DNA of 28,475 bases, from NCBI GenBank assembly GCA_021790295.1, contig JAJYIC010000002.1, positions 1 to 28,475 of the forward strand, in the 5' to 3' direction. A model generated the notes under the pieces. That model ran no database searches, was not told the DNA's origin, and saw only the letters and a list, made by a program, of their open reading frames with translations. The position numbers and the translations under genes are program-made. Shown piece by piece: positions 21,969 to 24,523 of this stretch (position 1 is its first letter; each line of letters begins with the position of its first letter). This DNA comes from Pseudomonadota bacterium. Lineage in GTDB: Bacteria; Pseudomonadota; Alphaproteobacteria; ATCC43930; CGMCC-115725.

Positions 21969-22439
21969 ATGGGGAAAATCGCCCTTCTAATGACGCTCGG
22001 GACAGTAATGCTCGCGGCAACGACGCTCGGGGCCGTTTCGGCAGCGCAGGGCGTCTGCTTTACAAAAGCCGACAACGACGCCAAGGCGGCCATCCTCTTT
22101 CAGACAAAGCTGATGGTGGCGAGTTCGAGCTGTCACGATCTGACCTATGCCCGCTTTCGCCTGCGCAACCGGCTTCAGATCATCCGCTATCAGAACCAGA
22201 TGATCGCGCATTTCCGCCGCGGCGGGGCGCGCCTTCCCGCGCAACGATTCGAAAGCTGGATAACCGAGCTCGCCAACGAGGATGCGGGAAAGGTGGCCGG
22301 CCTGACGATCCCGCAAGTGTGCGAGAAGGCGGCAGGCCTTTTCACTCTCGCCAAAAGCCTCGACGCCAAAGGATATCGGCTCTACGCCGCCGCCGAAGCG
22401 AAAAAAGACCCCTCCGACGACCGGCGCTGCGGGCGCTGA
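21969..22439 (+). CDS. Exported hypothetical protein with four Cys
   Basis: N-terminal signal peptide ending AVSA/AQG, four Cys, normal composition. Confidence 0.75.
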   Translation: MGKIALLMTLGTVMLAATTLGAVSAAQGVCFTKADNDAKAAILFQTKLMVASSSCHDLTYARFRLRNRLQIIRYQNQMIAHFRRGGARLPAQRFESWITELANEDAGKVAGLTIPQVCEKAAGLFTLAKSLDAKGYRLYAAAEAKKDPSDDRRCGR

Positions 22440-22515: not shown

Positions 22516-22827
22516 TTACCGGCAGAACGGCGAAGGCCCGAGATTGACGGCTCTGGGCGAGGTCGCCGCACCCAAAAGCCCGCCGCCGGCGGCGCCCGCC
22601 GCCGCGCCGAGCGCGGGAGCGCCGGCGATGGCGCCGATTGCCGCACCTCCTGCCGCACCGATCCCCGCACCGGTTACCGCGCGGCAACCGGGGGTGACGC
22701 CGCACCCCGCGAGCGTCAAGGCGCCGAGAAGGCCGGACACGGCGAAAAGAGGTCTGACACCTTTGCCGAGGACGCCCGCAAAGACGCCCTGGCGCAAGGA
22801 ATGGATCGCTGTCGTAAGAGGTCTCAT
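22516..22827 (-). CDS. Glycine-zipper lipoprotein
   Basis: Lipobox LAGC followed by GAGIGAAGGAAIGAIAG..GAAAGAAGGGLLGA; GGAG upstream of ATG 22827. Confidence 0.75.
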   Translation of the reverse strand: MRPLTTAIHSLRQGVFAGVLGKGVRPLFAVSGLLGALTLAGCGVTPGCRAVTGAGIGAAGGAAIGAIAGAPALGAAAGAAGGGLLGAATSPRAVNLGPSPFCR

Positions 22828-23224
22828 TCTGTTCGCTCCACAGGCCGCGACACCGCAGATTGTGGTGCCGGAAACTTTCTAAATGGAAAACAACCGAACG
22901 GCGCCGAGGGTTCCGCGCGGCACCAGGGGTTGCCGAGCCCTTTCCCTTTGCCGCGCGGGCCGAAGCCGAGCGCGAGGCGGCGCGGCTTCACTTTCGCGAG
23001 CGCGATTTGTGGATTTTTTCGCATCCTTGCGGCATCATCGCCCTGCCGAAAGCGGGCATGGTGCGGGATCGGTCGAGCGTAAGGCGTTCGCGCCTTTCCC
23101 GTTTTGCCCTCACCGCGGCAAGGGCGGGGAGGCGCCCTCTGTTTGCGGCAAAAGGAAAGGCCGCCACGCTGGCGCCATGATTGGCGTCCTCTTTCTGGCG
23201 GGCGGCGCGCGGAGGGTGTTGGAA

Positions 23225-24523
23225 ATGAGGTGGTTGGCAAGCGTGTTCCTGGCGGCGGGGCTTTTGTTCCCCGGCTTCGCGGCGGCCGCGCCCGCCTCCG
23301 CCAAAAGCCTCCCGGCGCCATCGACCGCCGCCTACAGCTCCGTCTATGACGACCTCAATCTGTTCAACCAGGCTTTCGACCGCATCCGCCGCGACGCGGT
23401 GCAGCAGATGGCGGGGGAGCCTTTGGTGCGGGCCGCGATCGCCGGCATGTTGGCTTCCCTCGATCCCCATGGGGCCTATTTCGACAAAAAGGCGCTCTCT
23501 CTCGGGCGCGGCGCCGAGGATACGGTCGGTCTCGCGGTGACGTTGCGGCAGGGGACGGTTCGGGTGATCGCGCCGCGCGAGGGCTCTCCGGCGGCCGCGG
23601 CGGGCATCAAGGCCGCAGACATCATCTTGACCATCGGCAAAAAGCCGGCCGGCGTGATGACCCTCGGCGATATCGAAAAGCGGCTCCAAGGCCCGCCCGG
23701 AAGCGTCCTCGAATTGCAGATCGAACGCGCCGGCATCGATCATCCTCTCAAAGTCAAGGTGACGCGCGCGCTCTTCAGCTTGCAGACGGTCAGCTCCCGG
23801 CTTTTGGGGGATATAGGTTACATACGCCTTGCCGGTTTCGACGCCGGCACGCCGGCGGCCGTGGCGGCGGCAATCTCGGATTTCAGGCAGAAGCGCGGGA
23901 AAAAGCTGATCGGGATCATCCTCGATTTGCGCAACAATCCGGGAGGGAATTTCGCCTCCGCGGTCAAGGTCGCCGATGAGTTTCTCGACAAAGGGGTGAT
24001 CGCCCTCATCGAGGGCCCGCAGCCGCCGTCAAAGCCGATCCGGGCAAAGGCGGGGGATCTTGCCTCGGCTCTGCCGATGGTCGTCCTCATCAACCGCGGT
24101 ACGGCCGACGAGGCCGAACTCCTCGCCGCCGCGCTCAAGGACAACCGGCGGGCGGTTCTGGTCGGCAGGCGCAGCTTTGGCGAAAGCGCGATCGAGGCGA
24201 TGATCCCGCTCGCCGACGGCGGCGCGATCCGTCTCGCCACCACACGCTTTCTCACTCCCGACGGCCGCAACATCGAAGGCAAGGGCATAAGTCCCGACAT
24301 CGCGGTAAAGCCGCTAAAGCTCGTCAAGATCAAGGAGGGCCTGCGCATCCGCGAGGCCGATCTGCCCGGTGCGCTCAAAAACCCCGACGGCAAGACGCTG
24401 CCGCCGGCGCCGGCAGCGGCCGGGCCCGGGGCCGCCTTCGCAAGCCACGGCGACGAACAGCTCGTCCGCGCCGCCGATATCCTGCGCGCTCTCGCCATTG
24501 CCAAAAGCCCGGACCCGGGGTGA
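23225..24523 (+). CDS. S41A/CtpA-like C-terminal protease homolog (PDZ + protease domain) lacking the catalytic Ser and Lys
   Basis: Signal peptide MRWLASVFLAAG, LDPHGAY, GSPAAAAGIKAAD, IGYIRL, LDLRNNPGG, RFLTPDGRNIEGKGISPDI; GGAGG RBS. Confidence 0.9.
   Translation: MRWLASVFLAAGLLFPGFAAAAPASAKSLPAPSTAAYSSVYDDLNLFNQAFDRIRRDAVQQMAGEPLVRAAIAGMLASLDPHGAYFDKKALSLGRGAEDTVGLAVTLRQGTVRVIAPREGSPAAAAGIKAADIILTIGKKPAGVMTLGDIEKRLQGPPGSVLELQIERAGIDHPLKVKVTRALFSLQTVSSRLLGDIGYIRLAGFDAGTPAAVAAAISDFRQKRGKKLIGIILDLRNNPGGNFASAVKVADEFLDKGVIALIEGPQPPSKPIRAKAGDLASALPMVVLINRGTADEAELLAAALKDNRRAVLVGRRSFGESAIEAMIPLADGGAIRLATTRFLTPDGRNIEGKGISPDIAVKPLKLVKIKEGLRIREADLPGALKNPDGKTLPPAPAAAGPGAAFASHGDEQLVRAADILRALAIAKSPDPG

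Follow-up and report, generated by a model that had tools for sequence, protein, structure and literature searches.

The C-terminal processing protease CtpA of Pseudomonas aeruginosa (MEROPS S41A; PDB 7rpq and 8sxe-8sxh) is the closest described relative of the protein considered here. Cryo-electron microscopy of the LbcA3-CtpA6 complex revealed that a single protomer of each CtpA dimer becomes active, and that the inactive 'back' protomer inserts its trans-interacting loop (TIL, aa 376-411) into the neighbouring dimer (PMC11021448). The bonds formed there are those of Glu385' with His84 of the active protomer and of Asn394' with Gln360, and the E385A mutation lowered CtpA activity. Residues Leu46, Phe49 and Leu53 of CtpA helix H1 contact LbcA (PMC11021448); the role of the C-terminal dimerisation helix was described separately (PMC8764530). 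The stretch of DNA analysed here (the window) comprises 28,475 nucleotides of an alphaproteobacterial genome (contig JAJYIC010000002.1 of GenBank assembly GCA_021790295.1, positions 1 to 28,475, forward strand) and carries at positions 23225-24523 a gene for a CtpA paralog without the catalytic triad, referred to below as the dead copy. Judged from sequence, this lineage-specific, secreted S41A pseudoprotease may be a dedicated non-catalytic partner subunit in a mixed oligomer with an active paralog of the same genomes (act1), a reading to which we give an even chance.

The domain order of the window protein, with the N-terminal dimerisation region (NDR), PDZ, cap/core, TIL and C-terminal helix, was that of P. 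aeruginosa CtpA. The likeness was closest to the inactive protomer CtpA'. The window protein kept the equivalents of His84, Glu385 and Asn394, the hydrophobic face of H1 and the zipper helix. Of the elements of a hexameric CtpA, a two-helix NDR, a C-terminal hydrophobic-zipper helix and a TIL with the Glu385 and Asn394 equivalents were present. Unlike in P. aeruginosa CtpA, Ser302, Lys327 and Gln331 were replaced by Asp, Glu and Glu, and the tunnel was remodelled (A296E, G321S, Y342F and a changed S349). The inactive protomer of P. aeruginosa is a conformational state of one protein, whereas the window protein is a separate gene product. An adaptor resembling LbcA was not identified, no search aimed at one having been made.

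More distant parallels differ in fold or in setting. The S41-fold modules of vertebrate RBP3/IRBP are binders, not peptidases. They were detectable as homologues by sequence (PDB 9frx, E 1e-15; 7jti, E 3e-4) but, unlike the window protein, they are eukaryotic, PDZ-less, arranged in tandem, bind lipids or retinoids and are unrelated to CtpA oligomers. Catalytically dead protease homologues kept as regulators or partners of active enzymes are represented by CspA/CspC of Clostridioides difficile and by iRhoms, and the EnvC/NlpD dLytM factors, which are degenerate-enzyme regulators of envelope hydrolases, follow the same principle. These proteins have other folds (M23, subtilisin and rhomboid) and none is S41, unlike the window protein. 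Well-described pseudoproteases exist among rhomboids, subtilisins and M23 peptidases, and a literature search found no paper on a bacterial S41/CtpA pseudoprotease; a well-sampled clade under selection and a specific structure-based hypothesis of its role are what is new here.

The features of the gene and its product were as follows:

23211-23215, plus strand: Shine-Dalgarno-like GGAGG, 9 nt before the ATG, by direct reading of the sequence.
23225-24523, plus strand: coding sequence of the triad-less CtpA paralog, 432 aa and stop, from the open reading frame (ORF), Pfam and the alignment to P. aeruginosa CtpA.
23225-23302, plus strand: probable Sec signal peptide, aa 1-26, with a hydrophobic core followed by A-S-A and without a lipobox Cys; translation inspected by eye only, with a predicted local distance difference test score (pLDDT) below 55 in the AlphaFold2 (AF2) model.
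23327-23464, plus strand: NDR, helices aa 35-57 and 64-79, from the AF2 model helices, aligned to P. aeruginosa H1/H2.
23525-23779, plus strand: PDZ domain, aa 101-185 (Pfam PDZ_6, E 1.6e-10; PDZ_2, E 2.4e-7).
23810-24307, plus strand: S41 core domain, aa 196-361 (Pfam PF03572, E 3e-44, full-length profile match 1-165; same span from the genome search; pLDDT >90).
24107-24109, plus strand: Asp295 at the nucleophile position (Ser302 of P. aeruginosa), by alignment.
24182-24196, plus strand: Glu320 (position of the general base Lys327) through Glu324 (position of Gln331), by alignment.
24350-24388, plus strand: TIL motif R-E377-A-D-L-P-G-A-L-K-N386-P-D, by alignment to P. aeruginosa CtpA.
24452-24505, plus strand: C-terminal dimerisation helix, aa 410-427, DEQLVRAADILRALAIAK, aligned to the Leu426/Leu430 zipper helix of P. 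aeruginosa CtpA (model helix 411-427).

Family membership of the product was clear. Pfam detected Peptidase_S41 (E 3e-44), PDZ and CtpB_N-like domains, and the best solved-structure match was P. aeruginosa CtpA (7rpq/8sxe) over aa 41-427 with an E-value of 5e-65. The NCBIfam model TIGR00225 'prc' scored 217.0 bits, below its curated cut-off of 218.6, and the scores of the CtpA/B/C/Z exception models were far under their cut-offs. Among the features by which MEROPS defines S41A, the S41 fold and the PDZ preceding the core were present, and the nucleophile Ser and the general-base Lys were absent.

In the alignment to P. aeruginosa CtpA, GSASAAE corresponded to GTADEAE and SFGKGSVQ to SFGESAIE. 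Ser302 was replaced by Asp295 (nt 24107-24109), Lys327 by Glu320 (nt 24182-24184) and Gln331 by Glu324 (nt 24194-24196), and His84 was kept as His82. The numbering of the structure chain is offset by +33 from that published for P. aeruginosa CtpA, as verified at Ser302 and Lys327. Both motifs, their positions and the unbroken ORF had been given exactly in a preliminary description of this DNA, as translation (432 aa, no internal stop) and alignment confirmed. Canonical representatives carried Ser at the nucleophile position and Lys at the general-base position without exception (117/117 for each). The window protein cannot use the Ser-Lys mechanism and, on the evidence of its alignments and of the distribution, phylogeny and dN/dS given below, is almost certainly a selected pseudoprotease: its homology to an enzyme family is clear, the residues essential for catalysis are gone, and selection has preserved the gene.

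The loss was a property of a whole clade. Among the 120 best matches found in a search of 5.8 billion proteins, both Ser and Lys were missing in every one; where named at all, these proteins are called 'S41 family peptidase [Stellaceae bacterium]' in the databases. Strict matches (E<=1e-95) were found in 63 of the 66 sampled genomes of the window's genus (g1) and in 38 of the 44 of a second genus (g17) of the same family (NCBI label "Stellaceae"); the 18 other genera of the order yielded no such match. In the three g1 genomes without a strict match, one gene was cut by a contig end and one was frameshifted. Only one of about 125 strict matches contained an internal stop. The sister family and relatives at class level had, as their top matches, ordinary enzymes with Ser, Lys and Gln at the three positions (S/K/Q). 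A contig search with query-specific peptide patterns was uninformative about the clade, as it brought up nothing but canonical CtpAs (L008-L041) from Desulfobacterota and other groups. Active S/K/Q paralogs were present in every examined genome carrying the dead copy; two of these paralogs are referred to as act1 and act2. The tallies include the unpublished genomes G020 and G122, and one comparison sequence (L099) comes from the unpublished G075; no conclusion depends on these alone.

In the phylogeny (a quick posterior mean site frequency tree with an approximately unbiased (AU) test), the dead clade was monophyletic, with a support of 100 in the Shimodaira-Hasegawa-like approximate likelihood-ratio test, and had a long stem. 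A tree joining the dead clade and act1 of g1 and g17 in one clade lay 17 log-likelihood units above the free quick search (p-AU 0.89), as would be expected if the ancestor of g1 and g17 had undergone the duplication. The ratio of nonsynonymous to synonymous substitution rates (dN/dS) was calculated by the NG86 method for the same genome pairs for each copy at dS 0.3-1.0; it was 0.11-0.19 for the dead copy, 0.07-0.18 for act1 and 0.06-0.12 for act2. The dead copy is under clear purifying selection, relaxed about 1.5-2-fold relative to the active paralogs.

The window genome is a metagenome-assembled genome (MAG) of 2.7 Mb in 415 contigs and 84% complete, and such fragmentation is what could be said for a pseudogene in decay or for an error of sequencing or assembly. 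We consider either practically negligible, as the ORF is intact and preceded by a Shine-Dalgarno sequence, intact orthologues with the same losses exist in more than 100 species and dN/dS is well under 1. The lack of Ser and Lys in all 120 closest homologues, together with the clade distribution and dN/dS, refutes error and recent decay. The preliminary description had called a sequencing error unlikely and had proposed a selected non-proteolytic paralog, and both views are borne out, the latter, in terms of sequence, by the monophyletic clade, its dN/dS and the coexisting active paralogs. The comparison that it had suggested, of degenerate-dyad homologues with dN/dS and the co-occurrence of an active ctpA, gave a dyad lost clade-wide, purifying selection and active paralogs alongside; close orthologues retaining Ser and Lys, which would have spoken for recent decay, were not encountered among the 120 nearest (0/120).

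The residue replacing the nucleophile varied within the dead clade. At the Ser position, R was found in 67% of the members and D, E, G, A, H, N or Q in the others, with G, G, Q, D and G in the five nearest relatives of the window protein. The Lys position was occupied by E in 82% of the members and mostly by D in the remainder, and the Gln position by E in 77%. According to these alignments, an acid at the Lys position and usually an acid at the Gln position are features of the clade, and Asp295 is not one of them; since the Ser position is unconserved even among the five nearest relatives, Asp295 is idiosyncratic and has no special meaning. In a dead-clade orthologue from g17 (L118 in G093), Ser was back at the nucleophile position (GGTASEAEL) and Gln stood at the Lys position (TFGQSAIET), which fits free drift at the Ser position.

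The canonical-invariant positions altered in the dead clade grouped around the active-site tunnel: S295, A296E (97%), I299L, K320E, G321S, V323I, Q324E, Y342F and S349E (77%). G100 of the PDZ loop, also canonical-invariant, was altered as well. It could be imagined that the acidic pocket of D295, E296, E298, E320 and E324 binds a metal or forms a new catalytic centre, given that the clade conserves E296, E298, E320 and E324. Such a cryptic enzyme is very improbable: the nucleophile position is unconserved, no Ser, Cys, His or Lys has become newly conserved near the site in the dead clade, and the core is under weaker constraint than in the active paralogs. The data thus do not support a designed acidic or metal site, and the significance attached in the preliminary description to the replacement of both residues by acids was not sustained, as most orthologues have R at the first of them.

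The TIL was retained in the dead clade. By alignment, E377 corresponds to Glu385 and N386 to Asn394, both within R-E-A-D-L-P-G-A-L-K-N-P-D; E377 was invariant in an 84-row alignment and N386 was present in 100% of the dead clade. The clade keeps the motif hEADLxGALKN, and a looser TIL-like pattern was found in 129 of 138 members. In active paralogs and canonical CtpAs, the motif, or at least its core E-x-[DN]-[LFY], was counted. It was absent from act1 in all genomes checked (0/15 in g1 and 0/6 in g17) and present in all canonical CtpAs of other genera of the family, which have no dead copy (6/6), of the sister family (4/4) and of class outgroups (9/9). In act2 the motif is kept as HE[SR]DLxGALKN. 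A complementary loss was thus evident in the alignments: act1 kept the triad and lost the TIL motif, and the dead copy lost the triad and kept the TIL and the dimerisation helices. The single-copy CtpAs of neighbouring genera retain both the triad and the TIL motif.

Regional conservation was compared as the mean pairwise identity over the same eight genomes. The NDR and the C-terminal helix had identities of 0.78 and 0.80 in the dead clade vs. 0.73 and 0.68 in act1. The order was reversed for PDZ (0.69 vs. 0.88), for the segment with the carboxylate-binding loop (0.57 vs. 0.89) and for the core (0.75 vs. 0.89). The oligomerisation elements of the dead clade are conserved at least as well as those of act1, and its ligand-binding and catalytic parts are relaxed. 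Moreover, NDR helix 1 of the dead copy was 45% identical to that of act1 and 10% identical to that of act2, and L44, F47 and F51 of the window protein align with the H1 residues Leu46, Phe49 and Leu53 of CtpA. The structural motifs had been described beforehand as well kept. This holds with one qualification: the segment before the carboxylate-binding loop (canonical R-G-E-F-G-G) is degenerate in the window protein, and a Gly invariant in 117 canonical relatives is replaced by Thr100. The Phi-G-Phi core of the loop is retained as V-G102-L with an invariant G102.

These data bear on the possibility that the dead copy forms a CtpA-like homo-oligomer of its own, without association with act1, and acts as a trap, chaperone or adaptor whose PDZ and tunnel bind C-terminal tails or envelope proteins. 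Such a stand-alone binder would agree with the retention of the fold, the Phi-G-Phi core with its invariant G102, the NDR, the C-terminal helix and the TIL, as the TIL also joins protomers inside the homo-hexamer (PMC11021448), and with the lack of gene linkage to act1; a genome with a TIL-less act1 and no dead copy (G046, see below) points in the same direction. We nevertheless hold it to be unlikely, though with a substantial residual chance, for constraint is weakest in the PDZ and its binding loop, and it would leave unexplained both the loss of the TIL from the sister act1 in exactly the genera with the dead copy and the act1-like NDR helix 1. Since the oligomerisation helices and the TIL are the most constrained, a partner or scaffold is favoured over a free C-terminal peptide trap. 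Of the roles listed in the preliminary description, that of a scaffold is accordingly retained, with the active CtpA as the partner, and that of a peptide trap has lost ground.

The AF2 model of the window protein, built from the 84-row alignment, was confident, with a pLDDT of 84.9 and the core above 90, and its top Foldseek matches were structures of P. aeruginosa and Helicobacter pylori CtpA. In superpositions on 8sxe, 8sxf and 8sxh, the query-normalised TM-score was 0.74 for chain B vs. 0.56-0.57 for chain A; for CtpB it was 0.67 with the resting form (4c2e) vs. 0.56 with the active one (4c2c). In 8sxh, chain B, with 399 residues, is longer than chain A and probably represents the inactive protomer, in which the TIL is ordered.

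The complex of the dead copy with act1 of its own genome (L001, 922-2175) was predicted with a score of 0.55, the best of three controls reaching 0.00. The runs agreed in at least 96% of the contacts, and the pLDDT of the partner was at least 79. Of 80 solved complexes, 58 attained the mark used for such predictions, as did 2 of 110 mismatched pairs; passes with scores of 0.60 or lower comprised only 7 of the 80 solved complexes, together with both passing mismatches. The predicted complex lends weak support to an association of the two proteins.

As only one protomer of each P. aeruginosa CtpA dimer is active and receives at His84 the Glu385' of the TIL of the inactive one, a 'back' subunit suggests itself as the role of the dead copy. 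A housekeeping CtpA would have been duplicated in the common ancestor of g1 and g17, and the two copies would have degenerated in a complementary manner. The dead copy would then be the permanent non-catalytic 'back' subunit of a mixed oligomer of act1 and dead protomers, to which it would donate the TIL and perhaps an adaptor-binding face (L44, F47, F51), and would support or gate the activity of act1 on envelope substrates. What we infer is that the protein associates physically with act1, that the effect is one of activation and not inhibition, and what the substrates are. With somewhat less than even confidence, we suggest in general terms that the two protomer roles, an active 'front' and a loop-donating inactive 'back', have been split into two genes to give an obligate hetero-oligomeric C-terminal processing protease in which the pseudoprotease subunit supplies the TIL and the adaptor-binding face. 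Such a split might also represent a natural duplication-degeneration-complementation of a homo-hexameric protease, a suggestion made with the same reserve.

The same interfaces could serve an opposite effect. A dominant-negative regulator would co-assemble with active CtpA and poison its oligomers, tuning the degradation of cell-wall hydrolases under particular conditions, and the acidic remodelling of the tunnel (E296 in 97%, E320, E324 and E349 in 77%) could block the passage of substrates. The evidence on the interface is equal for this role and for that of a partner subunit. However, a pure inhibitor needs no invariant TIL Glu, a residue that supports activity in P. aeruginosa, and the loss of the TIL motif from act1 suggests dependence and not antagonism. 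We therefore find a dominant-negative role improbable.

Several points weigh against a dedicated partner subunit. Deletion of the whole TIL barely reduced the activity of P. aeruginosa CtpA (PMC11021448), so the loop may be non-essential. The complementary loss is one evolutionary event and as such is not statistically testable. The complex prediction was a weak pass only, and because CtpA homodimers are already solved, this pass may reflect mere likeness; that the dead protein and act1 meet physically is something we infer. The genes of act1 and the dead copy are not neighbours, and they have no conserved operon partner. A genome of g17 that is 99% complete (G046) has a TIL-less act1, and no dead copy was found there, and in another genome (G194) the dead copy is frameshifted; the partner would thus be dispensable in at least some lineages. 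Finally, the sub-clade of the window itself lies on long branches and gave a dN/dS of 0.31-0.35, in saturated comparisons only (dS ~0.9-1.0). Distant pairs of the active paralogs were inflated to the same degree, and the closer within-clade pairs were therefore relied on.

The dead clade offers a natural test of the asymmetric-dimer/trans-loop model proposed for P. aeruginosa CtpA in 2024. If the dead copy is a fixed 'back' subunit, the function of the inactive protomer and of its loop would be strong enough to be retained in its own right. In g1 and g17, the TIL-less ctpA paralog accompanies the dead partner in most of the examined genomes. Counts of 'proteases' in such genomes are inflated, as the databases label the dead copies 'S41 family peptidase'. 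To our knowledge, the organisms carrying the dead copy are represented solely by uncultured MAGs, which, with a partnership that is deduced, limits the interest of the system.

The window MAG contains seven S41 genes: four CtpA-like ones and one long form have S/K/Q, and two lack it. The second triad-less CtpA paralog (L007/P0008; contig C93, 27482-28717, minus strand) shares 59-60% identity with the window protein, has G/L/E at the three positions (GTAGEAE and SFGLDQIE), retains READLPGALKNPD and lies on a very long branch (0.65-0.85). The active paralogs of this MAG come in near-duplicate pairs, L001/L002 (82% identical) and L003/L004, and the genomes of its relatives measure 4-6 Mb vs. 2.7 Mb for the window MAG. 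The bin may mix two related populations, in which case the two dead copies could be orthologues from co-binned organisms and not true paralogs. In the 97%-complete genome G194, the orthologue (L129; C3, 1743525-1744340) leaves the frame just after GGTARE, which points either to a pseudogene with a frameshift or to a fault in the assembly.

Outside the dead clade, 28 of the 150 nearest representatives of 50%-identity clusters (P0122-P0270) had a degenerate triad, with combinations such as A/R/Q, A/N/Q, G/L/Q and S/E/Q. Dyad loss is therefore recurrent in the CtpA-like family and seems, from these sequences, frequent and independent. Retention of the TIL as a general trait of dead C-terminal processing proteases was considered and rejected, as a TIL-like motif was found in only 3 of these 28. 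P0122 (V/S/Q) was likewise rejected as an intermediate form: its best matches in the order were ordinary S/K/Q CtpAs with about 50% identity, which indicates that it comes from elsewhere.

The surroundings of the dead ctpA are unrelated to envelope proteolysis, and no conserved neighbour was found in the window and 12 relatives. In the window, a divergent Gly-zipper lipoprotein gene lies upstream and an enoyl-CoA hydratase gene downstream; in 9 of the 12 relatives a divergent 4HBT thioesterase gene is located upstream. Farther upstream lies an ORF of 156 aa (21969-22439, plus strand) whose N-terminus resembles a signal peptide and for which Pfam gave no match, and the lipoprotein-like ORF, of 103 aa and with a glycine zipper of the YMGG-like type, occupies 22516-22827 on the minus strand. 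Neither of them is conserved beside the dead ctpA in the relatives. A search for expression listed no RNA data set containing the gene, and the sole DNA data set that contained it in full was a mine-drainage metagenome, from which the window itself may come.

The position of the GGAGG sequence supports the start of the dead ctpA at 23225 and not an in-frame extension to 22883, and the database protein P0002 has the same length as the window protein (432 aa). Before the accepted start, a further 114 codons in frame (22883-23224, plus strand) are free of stops, with an Arg/Gly-rich translation that looks non-coding, as is typical of a high-GC genome, in which many long spurious ORFs overlap real genes.

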